A stretch of DNA of 64,000 bases from Bacillota bacterium (GTDB lineage Bacteria > Bacillota > SHA-98 > Ch115 > JABLXJ01), in contig DUMQ01000098.1 in the NCBI GenBank assembly GCA_012839815.1, positions 376-64,375 of the forward strand, given 5' to 3'. The notes under the pieces were generated by a model. The model was not told where the DNA came from and searched no databases. It saw only the letters and a list, made by a program, of their open reading frames with translations. Below are positions 902 to 45,698 of this stretch, in pieces. A program made the translations under genes and the position numbers. The stretch's first letter is position 1, and every line of letters begins with the position of its first letter.

Positions 902-3607
902 ATGTCTATCATTGTTGCTGTTATCACCGTTGTTACCGTTGTTGCCGCTCAGGGGTTGGGTTTCCCTGTCATCGACATGCCTGCCGTTGGTCACGCTCCT
1001 GCCATCTCTTTCTCCACTGGTCATGCATATGCTGCGGAGGCCACAGAGAGCGGGCAGGGCAGCGCGTCTGACGATTCGAGTGCATCGCAAGCTGGTCCTG
1101 GCGAGGCCAGCGGGGCTGGCCGTTCTGTCAGGTCTGGCGGTCCTGACGGGGGTGTCGAGACTGGCAGGGCCGTCGGGGCCGGCCGCGCCCGGCTTGTGGC
1201 CGGCGAGGTGAGCTTTGACCTTGAAAACAGGATCATCACGGCGCGGTCGAATGTCCGGCTCTTACATGAGGATGTGGAGCTAACCGCCGATTATATGGAG
1301 GTCAATTTGAATACAAACGAGGTCCTGGCGGTTGGCAATGTGTCCATGTCGAAAGAGGGCGACCGGGTCCAGGCGCAGAGCATGAAGTATAATCTCAAGA
1401 GCGAAAAGGGGACCTTTGACCACGCCCTTGCAACTGTAACGGATGAGGATATAAAGGGGGAGCTGTTCGTCTCAGGCAACAGGGTTGAGGTTGATCCCAA
1501 CGTTATAAGGATAGTCTCAGGGAGCCTCACATCGTGCGATCTCGAGGTCCCCCATTATCATATTGAAGCTTCGGAGGTTACCATCTACATCGACGATAAG
1601 GTAATTATTCGGAATGTATCCTACTGGGAGGGGCGGTATAAGATATTCCAATGGCCTTACCTCGTATTCTCATTGAAAGAGGAAAACCAGCTTGAACTCC
1701 CCAGGTTTGGTTACGGCTCCTATGAGGGCTGGTTTATCAAGACCACCTATAATTACTATCGCACCGATGCAAGCCGCGGTAAGCTCTATCTCGACTATTT
1801 CCAGAGGCTCGGTCTCGGAGCGGGTGTGAAACACCTGTATGATCTGGGCAGGATAGGTAACGGCTTCCTTTATTTATACATGCTCGGCAATCGCCTTGTG
1901 GGACATAATGACATTGAGGCCGAGGTGTCGCACGGGCTCACGCTCGGGAGGGATGTTAGAGCCGATCTCGACCTGAAGTATGAGAATACGGGGACCTCAG
2001 GCGGCGGTGAGGATAAGAGCTTCACATCGTCTGTCGCCATAAACCAGAAAGACGAGTCTGGGGCGATGAACCTCTCGTTGAAGAATGTGAGCCGCGATGG
2101 GTCTGTTTACGGCGATACGAGGAGCATATCCTTTTGGGGTGAAAGGTACATTACCGACCGGATCAGGATCGCTGCCGACGCGAGCTATCTTGATGAACAA
2201 GCATCTGACAGGGAGCGAGATAGGTATTTGAACTATAAGATAAGTATAGAAGACCAGCTGCCTTCCCTTACGTTCAACGCGGTTGTAGAGAATTACGTAA
2301 AACCGAAGCAGCCCAGCGAGGAGGAAGGGGAAGAGCTCAAGGAGGAAGAAGAGATTCCCTGGAATGCGCTGGTTCGCCTTCCTGAGATCACGATTACCAC
2401 AAAGCCTCTCACCGTGAAACCCCTGCCCGCGCCGCTCGTCTTGAAGGCTGGTTGGGGCAAGTATTCTGAGAACGCCCTCCATGATGGGTGGACGCCAAGT
2501 ATCTTGACGGCCACGCGGACGGAGGCGGGGGTTGAGGTGCCAACAAGGATCGTCCCGCTTTGGGGAGGGACCTCCGGCGACATCTCGGCATCCCTGACAT
2601 GGGATGGGTATAGCGCCATAGAGAGGCGGGGCCAGTATCTGGACTGGCAGGCCGGCCAGCAGGGTTCAGGAGGGTATGCGGAGTATTATGAACGATATGT
2701 GGCAAATGCGACGGTTGGCCTGAGATCGAGACTCACCCAATCTCTTTCGCTGCGGCTCAGCTATGATTATCAAGGGGTCTGGGGTTGGTCGCCATTCGTG
2801 TTTGACGAGCAGGAGCCCAAGGGACTCGTAGCCGCAACGCTCAGTTTCAGGAACCCCGGCTCTAGCTCTGGTTTTGGCTATGGTCATAATCGTGGTTCCG
2901 GTTATGAATGGAATGCTGAAGTAGGCGCGGGCTATGACCTCTATTATCGCGAGTTTCAAGACATCATAGGCAAATTTACATTGAGCTTCGCCGCCGGTTC
3001 CCCGGCTGGACCGCCTCGTCAGGAAGGCGTATCCGGCCCGGGGGACGCGGCAGACTCAACAGGCCCGGCGAATCCGGCAGATTCAGCAAACACGACAGAT
3101 TCAGCAAACATGACAGATTCAGCGGGCACGGCAAATCCCGTAAGCCCGGCAGAGCAAGCAGGCCCGGCAAACCTGGCAGGTGCTGGTAATTCAGGGAATC
3201 CGGGTAGGAAGTTGTCACTGGACGTGGTTGGTAGGTATGATCCAAACGCATCCCAGATGCGGGACGTGACAGGCAAGATCACATTCACGTCCAGGGAGGG
3301 CTGGGATATAAAGGCCGGGGCGCGTTATAGCTTTGAGAATAAGGCGCTGGACAGGCTCGAAAGCGAGGTAGACGTCCAAGTTAACAAAGACTGGCGCATA
3401 CAATGGACCGTGGTATATGGCGGTGTGGATGAGAAGACGATCAAGCGGGCTGATATAGGCATAACGCGTGACCTGCACTGCAGGGAACTCAGCCTCCTTT
3501 ATAGCTATAAGGACCAGGAGGTGTGGCTCGAATACAGGATCAAGGCCTTCCCGTTTGAGGGCATAAAATTCGGCCTCGGCGACCAGGGGGTGCTTTTGGG
3601 CCAGTGA
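902..3607 (+). CDS. lptD: LPS-assembly outer-membrane protein LptD (OstA N-terminal domain + C-terminal beta-barrel)
   Basis: OstA-like N-terminal region (VSFDLENRIITARSNVRLLHEDVELTADYMEVNLNTNEVLAVGNV...) followed by LptD C-terminal-type sequence (YHIEASEVTIYID...YWEGRYKIFQWPYLVFS...GYGSYEGWFIKTTYNYY). The six-frame ORF begins at 683, but a hydrophobic signal-like Met (MSIIVAVITVVTVVAAQG) at 902 is a more plausible start. Contains an in-frame low-complexity insert (see findings). Confidence 0.8.
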   Translation: MSIIVAVITVVTVVAAQGLGFPVIDMPAVGHAPAISFSTGHAYAAEATESGQGSASDDSSASQAGPGEASGAGRSVRSGGPDGGVETGRAVGAGRARLVAGEVSFDLENRIITARSNVRLLHEDVELTADYMEVNLNTNEVLAVGNVSMSKEGDRVQAQSMKYNLKSEKGTFDHALATVTDEDIKGELFVSGNRVEVDPNVIRIVSGSLTSCDLEVPHYHIEASEVTIYIDDKVIIRNVSYWEGRYKIFQWPYLVFSLKEENQLELPRFGYGSYEGWFIKTTYNYYRTDASRGKLYLDYFQRLGLGAGVKHLYDLGRIGNGFLYLYMLGNRLVGHNDIEAEVSHGLTLGRDVRADLDLKYENTGTSGGGEDKSFTSSVAINQKDESGAMNLSLKNVSRDGSVYGDTRSISFWGERYITDRIRIAADASYLDEQASDRERDRYLNYKISIEDQLPSLTFNAVVENYVKPKQPSEEEGEELKEEEEIPWNALVRLPEITITTKPLTVKPLPAPLVLKAGWGKYSENALHDGWTPSILTATRTEAGVEVPTRIVPLWGGTSGDISASLTWDGYSAIERRGQYLDWQAGQQGSGGYAEYYERYVANATVGLRSRLTQSLSLRLSYDYQGVWGWSPFVFDEQEPKGLVAATLSFRNPGSSSGFGYGHNRGSGYEWNAEVGAGYDLYYREFQDIIGKFTLSFAAGSPAGPPRQEGVSGPGDAADSTGPANPADSANTTDSANMTDSAGTANPVSPAEQAGPANLAGAGNSGNPGRKLSLDVVGRYDPNASQMRDVTGKITFTSREGWDIKAGARYSFENKALDRLESEVDVQVNKDWRIQWTVVYGGVDEKTIKRADIGITRDLHCRELSLLYSYKDQEVWLEYRIKAFPFEGIKFGLGDQGVLLGQ

Positions 3608-8447: not shown

Positions 8448-9188
8448 ATGGACTATCTACTGGAGATCAAGGGCCTCACAAAGAGGTTTGGCAAGACGCT
8501 CGTGCTGGACGGATTTGACCTGAACGTCGCGCGCGGCGAGACAGTGGTCATCACCGGCCCGAGCGGTTGCGGCAAATCGACGGCCCTGCGCTGCATCAAC
8601 CGCCTGACGGAGCCGGATTCGGGCAGTATAACATTCGCGGGGGTCGATATCACGAGGCTGTCCTACAGCGACCTCCTGAGGGTACGAAGGAGGATAGGCT
8701 TTGTCTTCCAACATTTCAATCTCATCGAGCGGCTCACTGCCCTCCAGAATGTCATGCTCGGCGTTATCTTTGAGGGGGTGCCATACCCTGAAGCACGCGA
8801 TATGGCCCTACGTGCCCTGGCGCGGGTCGGGATAGGCGAGATGCTTGCGTGCCGCAGGCCGTCGGAGCTGAGCGGCGGGGAGCGGCAGAGGGTGGGCATA
8901 GCGCGCGCCCTCGTGATGGATCCCGATCTCATGCTCTGGGATGAACCAACCGCCTCGCTCGACCCGATCCTGGTCGTCGACGTTTTGGACGTCATGGAGG
9001 AGCTTGTAAAGACCTCTGGAAAGACCATGATTATTGTGACACATGAAATGAAGTTTGCATCCCGCGTTGCAGACAGGATTGTGTTGCTCGACCGGGGGCG
9101 GGTAGCCGAGGAGGGGCCGCCGGGTGAGGTCTTCCTAGCCCCCAAATCTGAGATCGGGCGCCGCTATAAGCGGCTCCTGGCGGGGTAA
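8448..9188 (+). CDS. ABC transporter ATP-binding protein (GlnQ/MlaF/FtsE-like single-NBD subunit)
   Basis: Walker A GPSGCGKST, signature LSGGERQRVGIARAL, Walker B LMLWDEPTASLD, H-loop VTHEM. CINRLTEPDSGSI motif. ATG 8448 chosen over in-frame GTG 8442. Confidence 0.9.
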   Translation: MDYLLEIKGLTKRFGKTLVLDGFDLNVARGETVVITGPSGCGKSTALRCINRLTEPDSGSITFAGVDITRLSYSDLLRVRRRIGFVFQHFNLIERLTALQNVMLGVIFEGVPYPEARDMALRALARVGIGEMLACRRPSELSGGERQRVGIARALVMDPDLMLWDEPTASLDPILVVDVLDVMEELVKTSGKTMIIVTHEMKFASRVADRIVLLDRGRVAEEGPPGEVFLAPKSEIGRRYKRLLAG

Positions 9189-23358: not shown

Positions 23359-24915
23359 ATGTATGGACTGACGCTGGTCCTCGCCCTTATAATCACGGGC
23401 GGGGTCATAGCTTACGTAGGGGATCATATCGGACGAAAGGTCGGGCGTCGCAGGCTGAGCATGTTTGGTCTCCGCCCAAAGTATACCTCGATAATTATCA
23501 CGATCATAACGGGTATCGCCGTTTCAACAACCACGCTCGTTGTGCTGAGCATCGCGTCCGAGGATGTAAGGACCGCGCTGTTTCACATGCACGAGATCCA
23601 GGCCGCGCTCGCCACATCCCAGAAAAACCTCGACCTCGCCGAACTGAGATTGAAGCAGCAGCAAAAGGAGCTCGATGAGAAGGCAAAGCTTGCAGATGAG
23701 CTGGCCGGGCGCATAAATACCCTCACCAGCAGGATAGACCAGCTCACGGCCGAGACCAAGGTGAAGGCCCAGGAGTTGAATGTCTTGACCGCGCGGAACG
23801 CCTCACTAAAGAATGAGCTCGAGGTCGTGATTCAAAAGAGGCGCCAGGCCGAGGCCGACCTCGCGGTCGTGCGGGGAGAGCTCGCCACGTTGAGACAGGA
23901 ATACCAGCGGATAAGCCAGCAATACGAGGCTACAAGGGGACATTACGAGGAAGCCAAGGTAAAGCTTGCGAGCGCCAGCGAGGAAATCAGGCGGCTCGAG
24001 GAGCAGGAAGCCAGGCTCCAGCTGACCATAAAAGGGCTCGAGCAGGAGAAGAAACGGCTAGAGGACGAGACCCTGAGCCTTGAGACGCGGATCCAGGATC
24101 TTACCCAGGGTGCAAACGCCCTGTATTCCTACCTGCAAGGTATGTCCCATTACCTGCAGGGCCTTTCATTGAGCGACCTGACCTACAGGGCGGATGAGAT
24201 TATTCTCTCCACCGTCATCCAGGGCGGCAGGCCACTGGATGAGGTGCAAAGCGACGTGGTTGCCTTCCTGGTCAAGGCCAACCAGCTGGCCCTCGAGAAG
24301 GGCGCGAAGATAGAGGGGAGCAATACCGACGCCATAATCTGGTTTTCGGATAACCTGCAGAATACTTATGAGCAGATTCGTGCGGCCAGGGGCAAGGTTG
24401 TCGTGAGGCTTGTATCAGCCACCAACGCCATGGTCGGGCAGCCGGTATACGCCTACCTGCAGGTATTTGAGAATAAGCGGATATTCCAGAAGGGCGAGGT
24501 CATAGCCAAGAAGACGATAGATGGATCGCTGGGGCCTGACAAGGTGGAGGACGAGATGATGTCGCTCCTGGTGGAGGTCAACGCGGTGGCGATCAAGAAA
24601 GGGATGGTGTCGGACGCCGAGGGTAGGGTCGGTAAGGTGGCGGATTACGCGCAATTCAGAGCCGCCAAGTCCGAGATACTCAACGCCAAGGGTCCTGTGG
24701 AGGTGTCGGCTGTGGCGGCCCAGGATACCTGGAACACAGAGGGCCCCCTCCAGGTGCAGCTTTACGTGTTGCCGGCCAGGGCGTCCAAGGCCGACGGCAC
24801 CCAGCCGGGAGGGGTGGAGGCGCCTGGGAGAGCCGGTGGCCCGAGCCAGGCAGGTGGAAATGAGATTGGTAATGAGACTCGCAGTGGGAGCAGCGGGACA
24901 GGGACTGGTAAATAA
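23359..24915 (+). CDS. DUF3084-like membrane protein (N-terminal TM hairpin + long coiled-coil + C-terminal globular domain)
   Basis: N-terminus LTLVLALIITGGVIAYVGDHIGRKVGRRRLSMFGLRPKYTSIIITIITG matches my recollection of the DUF3084 signature. About 250 aa of heptad coiled-coil follow (QKNLDLAELRLKQQQKELDEKAKLADELAGRINTL...). Confidence 0.55.
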   Translation: MYGLTLVLALIITGGVIAYVGDHIGRKVGRRRLSMFGLRPKYTSIIITIITGIAVSTTTLVVLSIASEDVRTALFHMHEIQAALATSQKNLDLAELRLKQQQKELDEKAKLADELAGRINTLTSRIDQLTAETKVKAQELNVLTARNASLKNELEVVIQKRRQAEADLAVVRGELATLRQEYQRISQQYEATRGHYEEAKVKLASASEEIRRLEEQEARLQLTIKGLEQEKKRLEDETLSLETRIQDLTQGANALYSYLQGMSHYLQGLSLSDLTYRADEIILSTVIQGGRPLDEVQSDVVAFLVKANQLALEKGAKIEGSNTDAIIWFSDNLQNTYEQIRAARGKVVVRLVSATNAMVGQPVYAYLQVFENKRIFQKGEVIAKKTIDGSLGPDKVEDEMMSLLVEVNAVAIKKGMVSDAEGRVGKVADYAQFRAAKSEILNAKGPVEVSAVAAQDTWNTEGPLQVQLYVLPARASKADGTQPGGVEAPGRAGGPSQAGGNEIGNETRSGSSGTGTGK

Positions 24916-25080: not shown

Positions 25081-25672
25081 CAGGGAGGTAGGCCGTTTCG
25101 CTGTGCGCTGATTTGGAGACTGCGGATGCGGCTTGACCGGTGTATAGCTATATGGCTTTATAATATAGCTCTATATAGCCGGTCTATGGTTAGCCGGTCC
25201 ATGGCTGGTAAGTACCGGTAGCGAGCGAGCATGAATAAGGAATAACAAGATTATTCGTGAAAAGATGAATAAATACATAGTATATCCGGCTGGTGCGAGA
25301 AAAAGGCCTGGATGGCGGTGGTAAAAGGTTTTCTAGCACGTTGTAAACATCTTGTAAAAACCAAAAAACTCTGTTTTTATTGGAGGAATTTTGGCGTCTA
25401 TGGAGAAATAGCGTAAAGAAGGCTTGTACTCCCAGGAATATTTGCCAGAAGTATATATGATATGCCGGGAGCATGATATACGGAGCCTGTACCCGTCCAC
25501 GAGGCAGCGACCGGGAGGAGGTGAGATCCCCTAATTCGCAGAGGCCGCGTGGGCGTCCCGATAAAAGCGCTGAGACACGGGTGTGTGTAGCGAGGGAACC
25601 AGGAGGCTCGCTATGTCACCAGTGGACGCGCAGCTATTTTAGCGAGTATGCTTGAAAAGGGGGATTCAGGCG

Positions 25673-28480
25673 ATGAGAAGGCATACGCATTTCATCCTCA
25701 CTGCTGTCCTGGTGCTTGCCCTTGCAGCTCCAGCGATGGCGAGTCCGTTTGCGGATGTCCCAGCGTACCACTGGGCGTATGATGCGGTAAACCAGCTGGC
25801 TGCGTACGGCCTGATTCAGGGCTTCCCGGATGGGACGTTCAAGGGCGACCAGCCTATGACCCGGTATCAGATGGCCATGGTGGTGGCGAGGCTGCTCGTG
25901 CAGCTCGACTCGCAAATCAAGTCCGAGATAGAGTCGGCAAAGGCCAGCATGAAGGCTGAACAGCCGGCTGCGGAGGCCAGCGGCCAGCCCGTGCTCGAGA
26001 AGATCGTCGAGCAGAAGGTGCTCGATACGGCCCAGGCCAAGGCGCTCGCGGAGCGGGCTGACGCGGTCGAAGGACAGGTGAAGGAACTGGGCGCTCAGGT
26101 ATCCACGCTGGGCTCGAAGCTCGATGAGGTTACATCCCAGGCTGGTGCCGCGGCCAAGGTAGATGAGCTCGCCGCGAAGGTTGAAGCGGGCCAGGCTGCT
26201 ATGGATGAGAAGATCGACTCCATGGGCGCCAAGCTCGATGAGGTGGCCTCGAAGGTCGACGTGGTCGACGCGAAGGCTGATACCATAGATGCCAAGGTCG
26301 CAGTCGTCGACGATAAGGTGGCCGAGGTCGATGCTAAGGCCGAGGCGATCAAGAAGGCTGCCGAGGATAAGGCCCTCGAACTGATATCGATGATCGATGC
26401 CCTCAAGGATGAGTTCGCAAAGGAGCTAGATATCCTCGGCGTGCGCACGGGGGCCCTGGACGACCAGCTCGCACAGGTCAACGCCAGGATCGCCGGTCTT
26501 GAGTCCAGGGTCGCGGAGATCGATGCGAAGCTCGCCGAGGTTGATGCCAAGGTCGGCGAGGTCGCAGGCCAGGTTGCTGAGGTCGGCACGAAGCTCGACA
26601 GCCACATCGCCGGCCACGAGAAGGTTACCATCTCGGGGAGCAGCGAGTTGAAGTATGTGAATGTCACGGTCACCGGCAATAAGGCAGTTGCATGGGAGGA
26701 TCCCAACGATATCTTCGCCGATGATGCGGCGGACATTCACCCCGCCGATGCGGGCAAGTTCGAGTCGAAGGCGTACAACCAGCTCAATCTCAATCTCAAG
26801 GCCAACAGCGCGCGCGGCGTCTCCGTGGACGCATCGGTATCCGTGGAGAACCAATTCACGAACGTTTTTGAGCTCGCTGATTTCACCCTCGATGTGAAGA
26901 CTCCGGACGTCGTCCGCCATATCTACGTGGGCGACGTGAAGCTTCCCGAGGGGACCTTCACGCCTTACACCCTTACCGGCGACCAGCTCGTCGATGAGGA
27001 CGGCGAGGCCAAGTACAACGGCGCCTATGCGGAGCTTGCATATGGCGGCCTGACCTCGACGATCCTGGCCCTGAGGCTGCAGGCGGCGGATCCGGGAGAT
27101 AATACTGATCCTAATAATCCGGTCCCTGGTAAATATGATCGCTATGCGATTGCCGCCGATGCGAAGATTGCGCTCAACCCGAGCCTCAAGGTCGGCGCAA
27201 CTTACGTGAAGGCGTTTGATGATGAACGCGCGGTGGAATTCGCTGTTCGCCCGGAGCTGGAGCTCCAGAGCGACGCGGTCGGCAGCGTGAACGCCCAGTT
27301 GACTCTTGCCCCGGGCTGGACTGTTGCGACCGAGGTCGCCAAGCGGACCCAGAGCAAGGACGAGAATGGTTCGGTCAAGGAAGTCACCGGTAGCGCCCTC
27401 GTCCTGGATGCGACGGGCAAGGTCGGCCCGGTCGAGCTCACCGCAGGCATCAAGCGCGTCGAGGATGAGTTCGCGCCCCTGGATGGCTTCGCGCTGATCA
27501 ACACCGATCCGGACAACGGCGGTATCGAGACCAACGTAAAGAGTTACAGCCTCGGCGCGAAGCTGCCCATCGATGCCTTCGGCGGGAAGCTGACCCTGGC
27601 CGGCGGCTACAAGCTCTCGGGTAATGCCAGTGCAGATGGGGACTGGAATACGGCGAAGAGCAGCAACAAGACAGGCAGCGTCGAGTACGCGACGAAGTTC
27701 GCGGGCCTGGATGTGACGGCCAAGGCCGGTGTCGACAGCACCTACTACGAGATCGATGAGACGTATGATCCCAAGACGGACGTCTTCAAACTCAACACGG
27801 GTGTGGAGGTTGGACTCGCGCCCTTCAAGCTGACCTACGATGTGACCAACGCCAAGATCAACCCGAGCGAGGCGGGCACCGAGGACTTCTACCGCGAGGT
27901 GGCCCTTGGCCTCGAGGCCAGCCACAAGGTAGGCGAGAATGTCACGCTCACTGCGGGATATGACTATGACAAGCGGGAGAAGAAGATTTCCGGTAAGGAC
28001 TATCTTGTCGCCCCCGATGTTGACGATCCCGCAGCCGAGAAAGAGGAGTCAACCTTCAAGGCCGGCGTGGACGTGGCGTTCAACCTCAACGCCAACATCA
28101 AGGTCGGCGGCGGCTACAACTACGAGGTCACCAACGACCTGTTGAACGACTTCCGCAAGGTCTACAAGAGCATCCTGAAGGGCAACTTCGAGGGCAAGCT
28201 GAGCGAGAAGGCCACCCTGTCGGGCGATGTGGGGATCTACAAGCTCGATAGGCAGGATTCGGCCGATAAGAATTCTGATATCGACGTGGCGTTAATGGGA
28301 TACGTCCCGATGACGAACGTGATCGGGAACCTCAACTACAGCTATGCTCTGACTTCCAATACGACGCTGAACCTGGGCTACGGTGTCGTGAAGTCGGATT
28401 GCAATACCGATGATCCTGACGACACGACCAAGGACTACACGGCGACCACGCTCAGCGCAGGCCTGAAGGTGACCTTCTAG
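25673..28480 (+). CDS. ompM: OmpM-like outer-membrane protein: signal peptide + SLH domain + ~300-aa coiled-coil + C-terminal beta-barrel
   Basis: Signal peptide MRRHTHFILTAVLVLALAAPAMA. SLH motif (FADVPAYHWAYDAVNQLAAYGLIQGFPDGTFKGDQPMTRYQMAMVVARLL). Long Ala/Asp/Lys/Val heptad coiled-coil. C-terminal region of alternating amphipathic strands ending in the aromatic residue F (GLKVTF), typical of OM barrels. A low-GC leader lies upstream. Confidence 0.8.
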   Translation: MRRHTHFILTAVLVLALAAPAMASPFADVPAYHWAYDAVNQLAAYGLIQGFPDGTFKGDQPMTRYQMAMVVARLLVQLDSQIKSEIESAKASMKAEQPAAEASGQPVLEKIVEQKVLDTAQAKALAERADAVEGQVKELGAQVSTLGSKLDEVTSQAGAAAKVDELAAKVEAGQAAMDEKIDSMGAKLDEVASKVDVVDAKADTIDAKVAVVDDKVAEVDAKAEAIKKAAEDKALELISMIDALKDEFAKELDILGVRTGALDDQLAQVNARIAGLESRVAEIDAKLAEVDAKVGEVAGQVAEVGTKLDSHIAGHEKVTISGSSELKYVNVTVTGNKAVAWEDPNDIFADDAADIHPADAGKFESKAYNQLNLNLKANSARGVSVDASVSVENQFTNVFELADFTLDVKTPDVVRHIYVGDVKLPEGTFTPYTLTGDQLVDEDGEAKYNGAYAELAYGGLTSTILALRLQAADPGDNTDPNNPVPGKYDRYAIAADAKIALNPSLKVGATYVKAFDDERAVEFAVRPELELQSDAVGSVNAQLTLAPGWTVATEVAKRTQSKDENGSVKEVTGSALVLDATGKVGPVELTAGIKRVEDEFAPLDGFALINTDPDNGGIETNVKSYSLGAKLPIDAFGGKLTLAGGYKLSGNASADGDWNTAKSSNKTGSVEYATKFAGLDVTAKAGVDSTYYEIDETYDPKTDVFKLNTGVEVGLAPFKLTYDVTNAKINPSEAGTEDFYREVALGLEASHKVGENVTLTAGYDYDKREKKISGKDYLVAPDVDDPAAEKEESTFKAGVDVAFNLNANIKVGGGYNYEVTNDLLNDFRKVYKSILKGNFEGKLSEKATLSGDVGIYKLDRQDSADKNSDIDVALMGYVPMTNVIGNLNYSYALTSNTTLNLGYGVVKSDCNTDDPDDTTKDYTATTLSAGLKVTF

Positions 28481-28588: not shown

Positions 28589-29080
28589 GTGCTAGAGCCT
28601 ACTAAGGTTATCTCGATCGACCCGGGCCGCGAGAAGTGTGGTGTGGCCGTCGTCTCCTCTGAAGGTGAGACCATCTTGAAGACCATCGTCCCTGCCGGGC
28701 GCCTGCTGGATACGGTGCGGGACCTCGTTGCACGCCACGGCGTATCGACGATCGTGATAGGTGACCGGACGGGGTCGAGGGAGCTTGTTCGCGCCATACG
28801 GGAAATGCTGGGCACCGGGGGCACAGGCAACGGAGGCGCTGGCTCACGGGCTGATAAGGCTACCACGGCTACCGGGGCCTTGCACGCCGGTCGTGATATC
28901 GAGGTCGTGCTGGTAGACGAGCACGAGTCCAGCATGGAGGCTCGTCACCGGTACCTCCGTGATCATCCCGGGCGGGGCCTCGAACGACTGTTGCCCGTTT
29001 CCATGCGTGTCCCACGAGAGCCATATGACGATTACGTCGCCGTGATCCTCGCCGAGAGATATTTCGGCAAGATACGGTAA
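28589..29080 (+). CDS. YqgF/RuvC-like putative Holliday-junction resolvase (pre-16S rRNA nuclease family)
   Basis: VISIDPGREKCGVAVV...STIVIGDRTG...VVLVDEHESSMEARHRY...DDYVAVILAERYF is collinear with YqgF catalytic motifs. GTG 28589 with GGAGAGG RBS; the longer ORF from 28490 spans a GC hairpin and is less likely. Gly-rich insert GTGGTGNGGAGSRADKATTATG. Confidence 0.6.
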   Translation: MLEPTKVISIDPGREKCGVAVVSSEGETILKTIVPAGRLLDTVRDLVARHGVSTIVIGDRTGSRELVRAIREMLGTGGTGNGGAGSRADKATTATGALHAGRDIEVVLVDEHESSMEARHRYLRDHPGRGLERLLPVSMRVPREPYDDYVAVILAERYFGKIR

Positions 29081-29104
29081 GCACTTGACCATCACCCGTA
29101 GCCC

Positions 29105-29615
29105 ACCCGGTCACATTTTTACCGGCCACCTGGTAACGTTCTTACCAGCCTGCCCGAGTCGCCCCCATGGGTGGTAAACATTTTGCCGCCCCACGCGCCG
29201 GGCTGGCGAGATTTTTTCCACTTCGCTCACCAGAGTGGTAACCTGTCTGCCACCTGAGCGTTGAGCTGGAAAGTATCTTTCCACTTCCTATGCCGGGGTG
29301 GTAAGTATTCTTCCACTTTTCACGCTGAAGTGGTAAGCTAATTACCACCCATTCGTCGAACTGGCAAGTATCTTACCACTCCGCGCGCCAGGCTGGCAAG
29401 TTAGTTACCACCTGCTTGCTGCACTGGAAAGTATCTTGCCACTTAGCCCGATGAGATGGCAAGTTATTTATCACCTCGACGTCTATCCTGGTAACTTTCT
29501 TACCACCCAACTGTGACCCATCGATGATGGTGGTAAGAATCTTACCACCCTGCGCCGTAAAGGTGGCAACCTGCTTACCACCTCGCCTGCACGACATGGC
29601 AATTTTCTTGCCGGT
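29105..29615. repeat. Phased array of ~16 degenerate 20-bp palindromes (consensus STGGYAAG-N4-5-CTTRCCAC) with ~31-33 bp centre-to-centre spacing and unique 11-12 bp linkers
   Basis: Sites read directly, e.g. CTGGTAACGTTCTTACCAGC, GTGGTAAGTATTCTTCCACT, GTGGTAAGCTAATTACCACC, CTGGCAAGTATCTTACCACT, GTGGTAAGAATCTTACCACC. Approximate centres: 29117, 29140, 29180, 29213, 29244, 29276, 29308, 29340, 29371, 29403, 29434, 29466, 29498, 29539, 29572, 29605. Confidence 0.85.
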
Positions 29616-29959
29616 CGACCCCGATTCCGATCAAGGGCCGGGGTGGTCATACAGAAGTCATACAGAAGGATGGCTATATAGAAAATTGTATACATCCTGA
29701 GATTGAAGAATTTGACACCCGAAATTCTCCGATTTAGAAAAGGATTTTGTTGAGGATTGGAGAAATATATAACGAGGATAGAAGACATATTCCAAATATT
29801 CCAGGCATGAGGTATGGAGCATTATATATTATTGTATCCCGGGCTGGGTATGTATCCAGGACTAGGTGCCGGGAACTGGATCGCCAGCAATGCACCAGCG
29901 ATGTTTTAACGCTTTATGGATGTTGACTGGTTATGGGTACTGAGTGGGAAGGCGATAAA

Positions 29960-31189
29960 ATGAGCAGGCACGGATGGTTTTTCGCCCCTATGGCAGGATC
30001 CACGGTTTTGCTTTTTATCTTCATACTTTTCATCCCGGCGGCGGTCGTTTTTGCGAATCCCTTTACACCGCTCCCGGCCGGGCACTGGAGTTATAGCGCC
30101 GTGGCTGAATTCGCAAAGGCCGGGCTGGTCGACGGTTATTCAAAGTCTGCCTTTACGGATGGCACCGCCATAACCCGCTATGAGATGGGTTGGATCGTGG
30201 CTAGGCTGTCGGCCAAGGTCAATGACCAGGCGTCCGGCGTTGTGCTCACAGCCTATCAGCGTAATTTACTGAAGCGCCTCCAGGCGGAATTTGCCGGTGA
30301 ACTCGCCATGATAGCCTCGCAGGGCGGCCAGACAGGTTCCCAGGCGTGGTCGCCTTCAGACCTCCAGGTCGCGCAGTTGATTTTACGCGATGAGCAGTCA
30401 GGCCTCCCCGCGAAGCAGGGCACGGGGCAGGCGTTTTGGGATTCAAGATCCGCTCCTGCTATCCCCCCTGCTAACCCCTTTGAGGCCATCGGAGGCTCAA
30501 GCGGGATCAGGCTTTCGGATATCCTCAAGGCAGGTGTGCAGGCTGGAAACGAACATAAGGGGTCAAACCCGGGCAAGGCGGATAATTGTGCGGGTAATTC
30601 CGGGGAAGCGCCGCTCCCGCTTGTTATCCCTATTACATTTGAGAACGGGTCCCAGGCTGAAATCCTCATAGGGGATACGGGGCCTGCCGACCCGATTTCC
30701 AGGGCAGCCCGCGGCGAAACCGAGGAGAAGGATGTCGTGGCGTCTGTAGGCATGCAGTATGCCCTGACGAAACTGGCAAGAGTCCGCGCAGGTTACGAGA
30801 TCGCCAGCCTCGATGATAAGGAGGCAAAAGAGACCGGTCAGAGCACCAGGCGAGCGACGGCGTCAGTTGGCGTGGACTACGATGTTATTATCTCCGATGC
30901 CGCCCGCCTTAAAGCAGGGTACAGCTACGCCCGGATGACCGATCTCGCGAGCAGCGGGGATGGCGACAAGAAGGCCGGTCTCATATTCGACTTGCTTGAC
31001 CCCTCAGCCATGGAGAAGATAGGCGAGGGGCAACGAACGACGGCCAGCGTGGGGCTGGGGTATAGTCTCAGCGGAACCACCTCGCTCACGCTGGGCTACA
31101 GCCTTATTGATTTTACGGAATCCGGCGCCGTCGAGGGGGACCATAAGCGATCCAACGTTGCGAGTGCGGAGCTCAGTATAAAGTTTTGA
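29960..31189 (+). CDS. Second SLH-domain outer-membrane beta-barrel protein (OmpM-like, short linker)
   Basis: Signal/TM MSRHGWFFAPMAGSTVLLFIFILFIPAAVVFA. SLH motif (FTPLPAGHWSYSAVAEFAKAGLVDGYSKSAFTDGTAITRYEMGWIVARL). C-terminal amphipathic strands ending ...ELSIKF. Preceded by a low-GC promoter-like region (29640-29930). Confidence 0.7.
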   Translation: MSRHGWFFAPMAGSTVLLFIFILFIPAAVVFANPFTPLPAGHWSYSAVAEFAKAGLVDGYSKSAFTDGTAITRYEMGWIVARLSAKVNDQASGVVLTAYQRNLLKRLQAEFAGELAMIASQGGQTGSQAWSPSDLQVAQLILRDEQSGLPAKQGTGQAFWDSRSAPAIPPANPFEAIGGSSGIRLSDILKAGVQAGNEHKGSNPGKADNCAGNSGEAPLPLVIPITFENGSQAEILIGDTGPADPISRAARGETEEKDVVASVGMQYALTKLARVRAGYEIASLDDKEAKETGQSTRRATASVGVDYDVIISDAARLKAGYSYARMTDLASSGDGDKKAGLIFDLLDPSAMEKIGEGQRTTASVGLGYSLSGTTSLTLGYSLIDFTESGAVEGDHKRSNVASAELSIKF

Positions 31190-43580: not shown

Positions 43581-45698
43581 ATGCCAGAACGTGGCGTCCT
43601 GATTGTTGCAGCAGAAAATGATCGCTACCTTAGAGGACTAGGGGACCATCTACGCGATGCAGGCGTTGCGACTGTTTTCGCACAGGACGGAGAGATGGCA
43701 TTCATCAAAGCGCAGAGCATGAAACCGGATCTCATGGTGACCGATATATTGATTCCCAAACTCAATGGGCTTGAACTGTGCAACAGGATAAAAGGGAGCC
43801 CTGAGACCCGTGGTGTCAAGGTTCTCATCTCATCCATGCTCATGGCCAGGGAACGATGCCTTGAGGCCGGCGCTGATGCCTTTTTACCCAGGACCGCGAG
43901 CCGCGCCCAGTTAGCCCGGGCGGTTTTCGGAATGCTGGGCCTTGATGTGGAACGTGACGTTATCCAGGACAAACTCCAGAAACTCATGAAGCTCAGAAAG
44001 GTCATCCGGGCTATGACCTCTTTATCAGATCCCGCATTCATGCTTAAGGAAGTCATAAAACAGGTAGCTGAAATCCTGGATGCAAGCGGGTGCGCCGTGC
44101 TCGTGAAGAGAGGTGCAGATATCCTGGAGCTTGGCCCCTCCGTGGGTGTGGACAAGGAGATGGTCGAGGACTTTACCGGGAACATATCGGACGGTATCGC
44201 CAGGATCGCGAATCGCCTTTGGGGGGCCGGGTCGCTGGCATCTGGATCCGGTACAGCCGCGGAATCTGGATCTCGTGTGGCAACAGGGGCGACGGAAGCA
44301 GCGCAGTGGGAGACATTAATCAGTGCTCCTTTGATAGAGGGGAATGACAGGCTTATCGGCATACTGGTGGCAGTGGCATCAGGGGCGGGTTGCGAAATGG
44401 GCGCCGAGGATGAGGAGGTCATTTCGGCCCTGGCCGATCTATTGACCATAGCCATCAGAATCTCGCGACTGCAGGAGAGGATTGGGGTCGACGCCTTCAA
44501 CAGGGATTCGCTTTGCTCGGAAGAGCCGCAGGGTTCCAATGGGTACCAGGGATACAAGGACGTGATAACCTCGCTTTATGATACGGTGGTCAAGCAGATG
44601 ACTGACGGGATCATAGTCTGCGATGCCACCGGCCGGATAATCCAGGCAAACAGGGCCGCGCAAAGGCTCCTTGGATTGGATGCTGCGTCAATGAGCAAAT
44701 TCACGCTCGACGCCCCGGAGATAGGCTTGACCACGCTCGATGGCAAAAGCCCGCCGCACGATGAATTCCCGGTAAACATATCATTGAGAACCTGCAGGAG
44801 GGTGACGGGTAAGGAATTCAGTTTGAAGAGATGGGGTATAATCATCGAGCTCTCGACGTTCCCGTTGAAAACCGAGGAGTGCAGAGTCGTCGGGGTTGTT
44901 GCGGTTCTCCGGGATATAACCCAGCGCTGGGAGCTTGAAAAGATGAAGACTAATTTCGTGTCAGTGGCCTCTCATGAACTCCGGACGCCGTTGACATCCA
45001 TCCGGGCTTATGTGCAGCTAATGCTGGCAGGCCGGATGGGCCAGGTGGACGAGAAGTGGAGAGGGGCTCTGGAGGTTGTATCACGAAATGTCGAGCGTAT
45101 GACGAATATAATAAACGATATCCTGGATGTCGCAAGGGTCGGCGAGGGAAGGTTGCCTTTGAATAAAACGGAAATCGACCTGGCTGACGTGGCATTTATG
45201 GCTGTGCTTGAAATGGGGACCCTGGCGGCCAATAAGAATATAAATATCGAAACGCAGATTCCCCATGGCGTCATAGGAGAATGGGATAGGCAAAGACTCC
45301 ACCAGGTGTTCGCAAACCTTCTTGATAATGCCATAAAATTTACTCCCCCGGGGGGCAAGATCTATGTACGGGTCAGGGCGGAGGGAGGGGCTGTTCACGT
45401 CGAGGTTCAGGATACAGGTAGGGGCATAAATCCATCGGAGCTGACGAGGATTTTTGAGCCGTTTTATCAGGCAGGGGTGGGAGGTGGAGCGGGCGAGCCC
45501 GACGATAGGGGAGCGCGAGGTGTCGGCTTGGGCCTCGCGATCTGTAAAGGCATTATTGAAGGTCACGGGGGTAGGATTTGGGCGGAGAGTTATGAGGGGA
45601 AGGGCACCACATTTCATTTTACATTACCCCTTAGGGAAGGCGATCCTAAAGATATCAATCCCGGAGATGGAGCGGGAGATCTTGACAGGGTCAAATAA
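43581..45698 (+). CDS. Hybrid sensor histidine kinase (N-terminal receiver + GAF/PAS-like sensor region + HisKA + HATPase_c)
   Basis: Receiver: VLIVAAENDRYL...DLMVTDILIPKLNGLELCNRIK. H-box: SVASHELRTPLTSIRAYVQLM. ATPase: NLLDNAIKFTPPGGKIYVRV...VQDTGRGINPSELTRIFEPFYQ...GLGLAICKGIIEGHGGRIWAES. Confidence 0.85.
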   Translation: MPERGVLIVAAENDRYLRGLGDHLRDAGVATVFAQDGEMAFIKAQSMKPDLMVTDILIPKLNGLELCNRIKGSPETRGVKVLISSMLMARERCLEAGADAFLPRTASRAQLARAVFGMLGLDVERDVIQDKLQKLMKLRKVIRAMTSLSDPAFMLKEVIKQVAEILDASGCAVLVKRGADILELGPSVGVDKEMVEDFTGNISDGIARIANRLWGAGSLASGSGTAAESGSRVATGATEAAQWETLISAPLIEGNDRLIGILVAVASGAGCEMGAEDEEVISALADLLTIAIRISRLQERIGVDAFNRDSLCSEEPQGSNGYQGYKDVITSLYDTVVKQMTDGIIVCDATGRIIQANRAAQRLLGLDAASMSKFTLDAPEIGLTTLDGKSPPHDEFPVNISLRTCRRVTGKEFSLKRWGIIIELSTFPLKTEECRVVGVVAVLRDITQRWELEKMKTNFVSVASHELRTPLTSIRAYVQLMLAGRMGQVDEKWRGALEVVSRNVERMTNIINDILDVARVGEGRLPLNKTEIDLADVAFMAVLEMGTLAANKNINIETQIPHGVIGEWDRQRLHQVFANLLDNAIKFTPPGGKIYVRVRAEGGAVHVEVQDTGRGINPSELTRIFEPFYQAGVGGGAGEPDDRGARGVGLGLAICKGIIEGHGGRIWAESYEGKGTTFHFTLPLREGDPKDINPGDGAGDLDRVK

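Follow-up and report, generated by a model that had tools for sequence, protein, structure and literature searches.

Dimers of the lambda O protein bind iterons that are palindromic, and the DNA is wrapped; more commonly, iterons are direct repeats ~22 bp apart and present in 3–9 copies. The repetitive extragenic palindromes and bacterial interspersed mosaic elements (REP/BIME) of enterobacteria, and dRS3 and the Neisseria intergenic mosaic elements (NIME), are dispersed in hundreds of copies and function as hairpins or as sites of recombination. The F-plasmid centromere sopC contains 12 tandem units of 43 bp each, which are bound by SopB (PMC3177203). Lrp clusters are made up of 13–17-bp imperfect palindromes with an AT-rich centre, located on one face of the helix and 2 or 3 turns apart from centre to centre; Lrp wraps ~100 bp of DNA around three dimers (PMC2995911). 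The DnaA-box clusters found outside oriC in B. subtilis are intergenic, ~0.5 kb in length, and work by titration (PMC3245932). The EDxHD/Vsr-like homing endonuclease I-Bth0305I is a homodimer with its specificity centred on a 14-bp pseudopalindrome that spans the cut (PMC3239194). Here a palindrome array from a 64-kb stretch of Bacillota DNA (contig DUMQ01000098.1, positions 376 to 64,375; the window) is compared with these systems. The array is thought, with moderate confidence and from comparative genomics, to be an orphan copy of a cooperative docking array for a predicted protein family that joins a winged helix-turn-helix (wHTH) domain to a nuclease-like domain. A phased cis array with a cognate DNA-binding protein is a known kind of system; a partner with a nuclease fold is unusual.

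The array is located at 29108..29613, with no strand assigned to it or to its sites, and contains 16 copies of a 17-bp palindrome with unique linkers between them; 15 strong and one or two weak copies can be recognized. The site consensus is TGGyAAs-www-sTTrCCA, a 7-3-7 build with a mostly A/T 3-bp centre. When sites are scored against TGGTAAG-N3-CTTACCA at a threshold of at least 10 of 14 matches, 15 are found inside 29101–29620, compared to 0.16 predicted from the rate in the remaining window; 2000 first-order Markov simulations give a mean of 0.2 sites and a maximum of 2, and no site with at least 12/14 matches occurs outside the array in the 64-kb window. The spacings between site starts are (23), 41, 32, 32, 31, 32, 32, 31, 32, 31, 32, 32, 42, 33 and 33 bp, and the linkers between the 17-bp cores measure 14–16 bp except for two of 24–25 bp. 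Autocorrelation peaks at lags of 32, 63 and 95, with an identity of 0.40–0.44 against a background of 0.25 +/- 0.04; a two-site super-period of 63 bp is present. The array sequence is 100% identical in an independent ENA assembly from a biogas fermenter, therefore it is not an assembly artefact; the array is real.

An earlier sequence-only reading had placed an array at 29105–29615, where it is present, and had asked that its palindromes and phasing stand out from a randomized control, which they do. Its count of ~16 copies with a ~32 bp period stands as 15 strong and one or two weak sites at 31–33 bp, to which the two spacings of 41 and 42 bp have to be added. The anatomy it gave for the single unit is replaced: the proposed 20-bp palindrome with an N5 centre is a 17-bp core with an N3 centre, and the literal N5 pattern matches nothing in the array; linkers given as 11–12 bp, with two of 21–22 bp, have the lengths measured above.

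Site 1 is weak (CGGTCACattTTTACCG, 29108..29124); site 2 (TGGTAACgttCTTACCA, 29131..29147) precedes a 24-nt linker that has homologous, identically placed counterparts in two arrays of other genomes, L050 and L054. Sites 3 to 7 follow at 29172..29188 (TGGTAAAcatTTTGCCG), 29204..29220 (TGGCGAGattTTTTCCA), 29236..29252 (TGGTAACctgTCTGCCA), 29267..29283 (TGGAAAGtatCTTTCCA) and 29299..29315 (TGGTAAGtatTCTTCCA), and sites 8 to 12 at 29331..29347 (TGGTAAGctaATTACCA), 29362..29378 (TGGCAAGtatCTTACCA), 29394..29410 (TGGCAAGttaGTTACCA), 29425..29441 (TGGAAAGtatCTTGCCA) and 29457..29473 (TGGCAAGttaTTTATCA). Site 13 (TGGTAACtttCTTACCA, 29489..29505) precedes the 25-nt linker that creates the 42-bp spacing; site 14 (TGGTAAGaatCTTACCA, 29531..29547) matches the reference at 14/14, and the array is completed by site 15 (TGGCAACctgCTTACCA, 29564..29580) and site 16 (TGGCAATtttCTTGCCG, 29597..29613).

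Across 47 distinct sites taken from four arrays, hardly any variation is seen at ten positions of each site (TGG.AA.....TT.CCA). The other site positions and the linkers are 14–23% different between close arrays and 32–46% different between the window and L054; aligned linkers by themselves differ by 14–19% for L054 against L050 and L038, and by 32–44% for the window against L054. This contrast is partly circular, as the invariant positions were picked from the same sites, yet it is still plain. At the variable pairs (4/14, 7/11 and 0/18), Watson-Crick pairing is as frequent as shuffling predicts, and in a separate pair count 130–215 of 500 shuffles attain the observed values; the lack of covariation between the arms argues against hairpins or RNA. 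Rfam gives no match at E<=1 on either strand, and no match at gathering score in the window or in the three related arrays L038, L050 and L054. Across six array loci, 54 spacings fall at 31–33 bp (37), 41–42 bp (8), 51–52 bp (4), 62–63 bp (3), 74 bp and 126 bp; the 17 spacings outside 31–33 bp, not all of which are independent, have a phase concentration of R=0.95 at 10.5 bp per turn (nominal p ~2e-7). The spacings are quantized at 32, 41 and 52 bp, that is 3, 4 or 5 helical turns, which bears out the earlier view of phased non-coding sites on one face of the helix. Fixed half-sites, independent arms and quantized spacing together point to duplex DNA that a symmetric protein reads.

A scan of 185,579 species genomes with a three-site pattern gave mostly single matches due to chance, and real arrays are present in only two other metagenome-assembled genomes (MAGs). 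These are L054, a 13-site array on a contig labelled Symbiobacterium sp., and the arrays L038 and L050, which share one contig of Bacillota MAG303. The window array is collinear with all three, with a common site order and several common linkers, such as the 24-nt linker after site 2; identity to the window array is 69–82% over 51–154 bp, and the homology stops at the array borders. The left end of the window array corresponds by homology to that end of the MAG303 array which lies next to the gene. The neighbours elsewhere are unrelated, namely a PyrK-like oxidoreductase with a toxin-antitoxin pair and a trehalose/ATP-binding cassette (ABC) transporter cassette; the whole ~0.5-kb array is thus one unit that is met at different loci. 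At L183, a relative of the L054 locus, there is no array and the operon is intact. The protein flanking the L054 array was rejected as a lead; it has no close relatives with arrays.

L050 and L054 display a three-site super-unit of 105 bp. The two MAG303 arrays (L038 1194–1567 and L050 1968–2900) are 93% identical, in inverted orientation and ~6–9 kb apart, and enclose a wHTH-nuclease gene, a sugar ABC transporter and a trehalose synthase gene; the array-flanked segment may represent a mobile cassette, or a piece of DNA that can invert. The centre of one MAG303 array palindrome harbours an IS110-family element whose DEDD transposase is frameshifted (L038 ~1570–3430), and a remnant of this element in another palindrome (L050 2493–2800) carries ~90-bp tandem repeats; the left non-coding end of the IS110 element contains CTCTTCTAG, which matches the flanking half-site and may be a bridge-RNA guide to the palindromes. 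A blastn search of the array against PLSDB plasmids and INPHARED phages gives no match, and pattern scans of viral contigs return chance matches and coding repeats only. Among the matches listed from a metagenome pattern scan are perfect tandem repeats of no relation to the array, one of them a 32-bp satellite from termite gut; this long, near-perfect satellite (GTGGTAACAGGATTACCATTTGTATTGACCCT, contigs L102, L117, L132 and L154) has the same half-site letters and period as the array, switches to a 30-bp variant, and was probably picked up merely through the search pattern.

One MAG303 array adjoins a wHTH gene (L038 3839–4729), a 296-codon open reading frame (ORF) with a weak MarR-type wHTH match. 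A word-indexed search with its protein identified 25 clusters of ~250-aa hypothetical proteins from Bacillota MAGs, and the loci L272/273, L274, L275/276, L277/278, L279 and L280–283 were inspected for upstream arrays in addition to MAG303. A 7-3-7 palindrome array precedes the family gene in six of the seven lineages examined; in L272/273, L274, L275/276, L277/278 and L280–283 the DNA before the gene is free of other genes over a few hundred bp to 1.4 kb, and in L278 and L283 it is broken off at the contig start. The 32/41/52 spacing is common to L272–L276; L277 deviates, with top autocorrelation lags of 30 and 108, and L280 has a weak 32 lag. Each lineage has its own sites, TGCCCAG-aat-CTTGGCA, TGGCGAG-att-TTCGCCA, TGGTCGA-aaa-TCGACCA, TGTATAG-aat-CTATACA (period ~30) and TGGCTAG-aaa-CTTGCCA, and these motifs are found nowhere else in the same 7–21 kb loci at 11/14 or better. 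The predicted recognition helix varies along with the half-site between lineages (SRQVVRQQ, SRESVRGH, SRDSVREQ, YRHGVRKH and SRFVVSQA). Several family genes are located on 1–2-kb contigs that start inside an array, which is the expected effect of repeated arrays on short-read assemblies. Upstream of the array in L274 a second, different tandem repeat is present (8640–8800), with ~20-bp units such as GGTATGCTGCC and GGCATGCCG. One MAG (locus tags GX795_) encodes two family paralogues, P0292 and P0299, which belong to different subclusters; this pair hints at several orthogonal protein/array pairs in one genome.

The family protein is modelled by AlphaFold (AF2) from the family alignment with a predicted local distance difference test score (pLDDT) of 91, and the model features an N-terminal winged helix and a C-terminal α/β domain. 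The C-terminal domain is modelled with the fold of Vsr and of the EDxHD homing endonucleases; PHROG 'homing endonuclease' matches reach down to 3.6e-9, and the wHTH has weak PHROG matches to O-like and DnaD-like initiators. The motif LE.DR.Y..AFE.NG.QHY..RD..K is nearly invariant across the family, down to 28–37% identity, which suggests a working active site, as predicted from conservation. An exhaustive profile search gives 376 clusters at 50% identity (E<=1e-30), many of which bear one or two extra wHTH domains; no other annotated Pfam domain is present in the ten cluster members scanned. The C-terminal domain has no Pfam, NCBIfam or PDB annotation, a search of NCBIfam with the wHTH-nuclease protein returned nothing, Foldseek found no full-length match for it in the PDB, and the PADLOC defence models give weak wHTH matches only. 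A literature search found no description of this array or of the wHTH-nuclease family.

The window array shares the 7-3-7 build, the A/T centre, the 32/41/52 spacing and a number of at least 10 copies with the arrays linked to the wHTH/Vsr-like genes, and it is homologous to a gene-abutting array, being collinear with L038 and L050; no family gene is present directly downstream of it in the window. It is proposed that many dimers of one sequence-specific protein would dock on one helix face of ~0.5 kb of DNA. Each 17-bp site would offer two 7-bp half-sites, with their centres ~10 bp apart, that flank the A/T-rich centre, a layout that could be read by a symmetric dimer; with sites 3, 4 or 5 turns apart, bound dimers would be aligned, able to touch or to wrap the DNA, and would probably interact. 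The cognate protein is most likely a member of the uncharacterised family with an N-terminal wHTH and a C-terminal Vsr/EDxHD-fold domain, and it would bind the sites of the window array; in the window the array alone is present, inserted between the RuvX-like and OmpM-like genes, and the protein would act in trans from elsewhere in the genome. The window sites are still good despite diverged linkers, which implies that a binder is present in the window lineage; the protein is expected to be encoded in this organism. By analogy with I-Bth0305I, the wHTH domains may lie on the two half-sites and the nuclease-like domains over the A/T centre, where nicking or cleavage could take place; the asymmetry of the centre would, speculatively, fit strand-specific nicking. 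Cooperative binding by a dimeric (winged) helix-turn-helix (HTH) protein, an idea already raised in the sequence-only reading, is the best explanation and gains from the phasing, half-site selection and independent arms, and comparative genomics now provides a wHTH candidate.

Several observations weigh against the docking-array proposal. An array that adjoins a gene is no proof that the adjacent protein binds it, and the linkage survey covers the close subfamily alone, from a wider family of at least 376 clusters at 50% identity. The seventh lineage (P0266, L279) has no clear array, just one TGGTAA-gaa-TTACCA before the start codon. A tblastn search shows no family member encoded in the 64-kb window, and among the family proteins found none is tied to the window MAG; the gene-proximal end of the window array adjoins the RuvX-like gene, not a family gene. 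The centre triplets are strand-asymmetric, T-rich on the + strand in the window array (likewise in L050 and L054) and rich in A on the sense strand of the gene in 4 of 6 lineages, a difference that a dimer of perfect symmetry would leave unexplained.

Such a module might serve as an origin of replication or transfer, as a polar barrier, in the homing-like spread of arrays or in nuclease storage. It is tentatively suggested, and regarded as rather doubtful, that the array and the wHTH-Vsr-like protein form an undescribed two-part system, in which a phased filament of a site-specific nickase or endonuclease on 10–16 palindromes would act at the A/T centres of one strand; this could serve the start of replication or transfer, a polar fork or transcription barrier, or homing-like array copying, and orphan arrays would be trans targets or products.

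The window comprises a lipid-A, Lpt and O-antigen outer-membrane (OM) cluster with every gene on the + strand, and the array sits between a RuvX/YqgF-like gene and an OmpM-like OM β-barrel gene (29933..31189, +). The RuvX-like gene is located at 28589..29080 (+), its start taken from the gene call on the identical ENA contig, with the ORF open from 28490; a degenerate site (CGGTAAGcacTTGACCA, 29075..29091, 11/14, no strand) contains the TAA that forms its stop codon. In L001, a relative with LptG in the same 90%-identity cluster, the gene order is equal and the array is absent: homology ends at 29071 and restarts at ~29700, with ~80 unrelated bp between that encode a longer C-terminal tail of the RuvX-like protein in L001. 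The array is thus carried by a lineage-specific indel of ~625 bp (29072..29699, no strand), and in the RuvX-like gene the insertion takes the place of the 26-aa C-terminal tail and provides the stop codon. Three further syntenic relatives (loci L179–L182) have no motif copies in ~20 kb each, and the gap from the RuvX-like to the OmpM-like gene is only 97–266 bp where both genes are called. The same gene order without an array at these five loci places the array in a lineage-specific indel, outside the OM locus; it is a recent lineage-specific insertion and not a component of the OM locus. The earlier reading had set the array in an OM-biogenesis locus, as a possible partition, nucleoid-organisation or regulatory site, and proposed to check orthologous loci; no relative examined carries it in the corresponding intergenic region, and neither a link to OM biogenesis nor a chromosomal housekeeping role at this locus is supported.

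A conserved non-coding promoter/leader of the OmpM-like gene follows the insertion (29700..29806, +) and is present with or without the array. This stretch (L001 6575–6680) is ~95% identical between the two species, compared to ~85% for the coding DNA that flanks it; it is AT-rich, includes a TTGACA hexamer, and has the appearance of a strong, conserved promoter with its leader. A perfect direct repeat, GTCATACAGAA x2, is found at 29646–29668, followed by a small palindrome GGATG...CATCC; the repeat is within the inserted segment, outside the array, and absent from L001. The RuvX/YqgF-like paralogue is always located between SLH coiled-coil gene(s) and the OmpM-like gene in these diderm Bacillota (window, L001, L179–L182) and has homologues in Negativicutes. 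Upstream of it, in all relatives, are a large SLH and coiled-coil gene (25652–28480) and a DUF3084 coiled-coil gene (23359–24915), whose products are possible OM-tethering components. Further away, a c-di-GMP-I-GGC riboswitch aptamer (RF03167; 42912–43009, +; 70.8 bits, E 1e-14) is present upstream of a hybrid histidine kinase/receiver gene (43581–45698). The neighbouring window genes near the array include no regulator, par gene or transposase.

The arrays could instead be terminal inverted repeats of a mobile element that uses the wHTH-nuclease, with the window copy a leftover solo end. The MAG303 arrays, 93% identical and inverted, do flank the wHTH-nuclease gene and the trehalose/ABC cassette, arrays occur at unrelated loci, and the protein fold is homing-endonuclease-like; however, no second array is present downstream within ~5–10 kb in L272, L274, L275, L277 or L279, and the window copy stands alone over 29 kb to one side and 35 kb to the other, with synteny intact in both directions. 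Neither a target-site duplication nor a shared terminal sequence was seen, and this explanation is considered unlikely.

A selfish REP/BIME- or NIME-like palindrome cluster, in which hairpins are spread by a REP-associated tyrosine transposase (RAYT)-like or other transposase and serve as IS110 landing sites with no host function, is considered quite unlikely. It would account for imperfect palindromes in intergenic DNA, a sporadic distribution with recent insertion, growth of the arrays by tandem duplication (the 63-bp and 105-bp super-units), and the IS110-family copies in palindrome centres of MAG303. It does not fit with the lack of scattered single copies in the 64 kb here or in ~95 kb of relatives, or with a motif array in only two genomes of the 185,579 scanned; stem pairing is not maintained, with no covariation beyond column composition, integral-turn spacing is unexpected for hairpin elements, and the arrays are specifically tied to one protein-coding gene.

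The array lies directly upstream of the OmpM promoter region, which raises the option of a site cluster where a host regulator or a nucleoid protein (an Lrp/AsnC octamer, for instance) would bind and thereby control or insulate the strong OmpM promoter, located 90 bp downstream. Clustered degenerate 17-bp imperfect palindromes with A/T centres, on one face and ~3 turns apart, are as seen for Lrp-like proteins (PMC2995911). Yet relatives that lack the array have a conserved promoter and leader of functional appearance, homologous arrays stand beside unrelated genes, and the consistently linked gene belongs to a different wHTH family; no Lrp/AsnC gene is present among the ORFs screened beside arrays, though a trans-acting Lrp elsewhere is possible. 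Such a cluster is considered decidedly unlikely.

A DnaA-box cluster for titration (datA/DBC-like), with Thermotoga-type boxes and each palindrome formed by two inverted boxes, is very improbable. The right half-site with its flank, CTTACCAC, equals T. maritima DnaA box 2, ACTTACCAC (consensus ACCTACCAC; PMC10316083), and B. subtilis has DnaA-box clusters of ~500 bp at places other than oriC (PMC3245932); but the flank base C18/G0 of the 9-mer is just ~50–85% conserved, the strictly symmetric 7-3-7 build with a fixed 3-bp gap points to a dimer, the array is missing from close relatives, and the T. maritima match arose from a text search for the motif. The half-sites of sister arrays are quite different (TGGTCGA, TGTATAG) though DnaA is conserved, therefore the identity to T. 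maritima box 2 is best treated as coincidence. No canonical DnaA box of the TTATCCACA type is apparent in the sites, for which no formal scan was made. The earlier exclusion of an oriC agrees with the position of the array, which is not a conserved oriC-like one: relatives lack it at L001 and L179–L182, and the genes on both sides are all on the + strand.

A structured non-coding RNA (a multi-hairpin protein sponge or 3'-untranslated-region stabiliser) or a mini array resembling clustered regularly interspaced short palindromic repeats (CRISPR) is highly improbable: each unit can fold a 7–8-bp hairpin with a U-rich triloop, the centre is strand-asymmetric, and the layout is one of repeats and unique linkers, but there is no Rfam match even at E<=1 and no compensatory change, many units have A-C or other stem mismatches, the orientation against neighbouring genes varies, linker lengths step by ~10 bp, and the linkers are conserved between genomes and just 14–16 nt, with no cas genes. 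A CRISPR array proper, already dismissed in the earlier reading, is rejected on the same grounds; the repeats are degenerate 17–19-mers with 14–16 nt linkers, as opposed to CRISPR repeats of 23–50 bp that are near-identical and have spacers of at least similar length, the short linkers are homologous between genomes, unlike spacers acquired from invaders, and the 64 kb contain no cas genes.

Other site types were also rejected. For a sigma-54 promoter array (TGGCAC-N5-TTGC) the GG is invariant and the -12 GC is present in 4/15 sites on the + strand and 5/15 on the - strand; tandem sigma-70 promoters (TTGCCA-N18-TGgTAAGAT) give one scan match only; and in the operator motifs of LacI/CcpA, GlnR/TnrA, GntR, DtxR and NrdR the spacing or key bases differ. 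The phased-repeat anatomy of a partition site fits the predicted cooperative dimer binding, but a plasmid-type partition centromere (sopC, parC or tubC) lacks support, with no operon of an NTPase (nucleoside triphosphatase; ParA, ParM or TubZ) and a centromere-binding protein beside any array. The ParR/TubR-type partition once proposed for this locus lacks the same NTPase partner, and the candidate binder has a Vsr-like nuclease fold. As for an iteron origin, the array stands beside a wHTH gene in relatives; this array-linked gene has no Rep_3/RepA Pfam match, and an unwinding element was not identified.

The evidence points to an undescribed module of protein and array that is unrelated to the OM locus. 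If the link between gene and array is true, the two form a cis/trans pair that is directly testable with purified protein and the 17-bp duplex TGGTAAGAATCTTACCA, and the module would be a new architecture among the few bacterial high-order nucleoprotein platforms (centromeres, iteron origins and Lrp wraps). The rule of 3-, 4- or 5-turn spacing is unusually clean, and the natural divergence of specificity across lineages could provide orthogonal DNA-docking parts. That a striking non-coding feature in an OM cluster of diderm Firmicutes is a passenger matters for the interpretation of the locus.

When compared to sopC/SopB, the array is likewise tandem (16 units, as against 12), with one inverted repeat per unit that is read by a dimeric HTH protein (here predicted), a unit of integral helical turns (43 bp in sopC, 32/41/52 bp here), and a cis site beside the gene of the binder, which here means an array beside the candidate binder gene in relatives. 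The units of sopC are near-identical including their linkers, whereas here the half-sites alone are kept; SopB belongs to the ParB family and works with the SopA ATPase, whereas here no NTPase is near any array and the candidate combines a wHTH with a Vsr-like fold. Iteron origins and the lambda O-some resemble the array in having several phased sites next to or within the gene of a winged-helix initiator; they differ in that no unwinding element, DnaA boxes or replication genes are seen beside the arrays, and the C-terminal domain here is nuclease-like. The ~100-bp wrap of Lrp is comparable to the 105-bp three-site super-unit of L050 and L054, however Lrp clusters have 2–6 sites against 10–16 here, and the linked gene has a different domain make-up. 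The B. subtilis DnaA clusters are similar as ~0.5-kb intergenic site clusters for one DNA-binding protein; DnaA boxes are asymmetric 9-mers without regular phasing, unlike the symmetric, phased and lineage-specific sites of the array. REP/BIME and dRS3/NIME resemble the array as clustered intergenic palindromes that are imperfect and separated by variable linkers, and as targets of IS110-family recombinases; in contrast, the arrays here are few, with no singletons found, no arm covariation, strict helical phasing and one linked gene. I-Bth0305I is encoded in an intron, recognizes DNA through other modules and has a single target, within a host gene; the family described here has a free-standing gene, a wHTH, 10–16 intact candidate sites beside its own gene, and a putatively catalytic motif that reads E-x-N-G-x-x-H.

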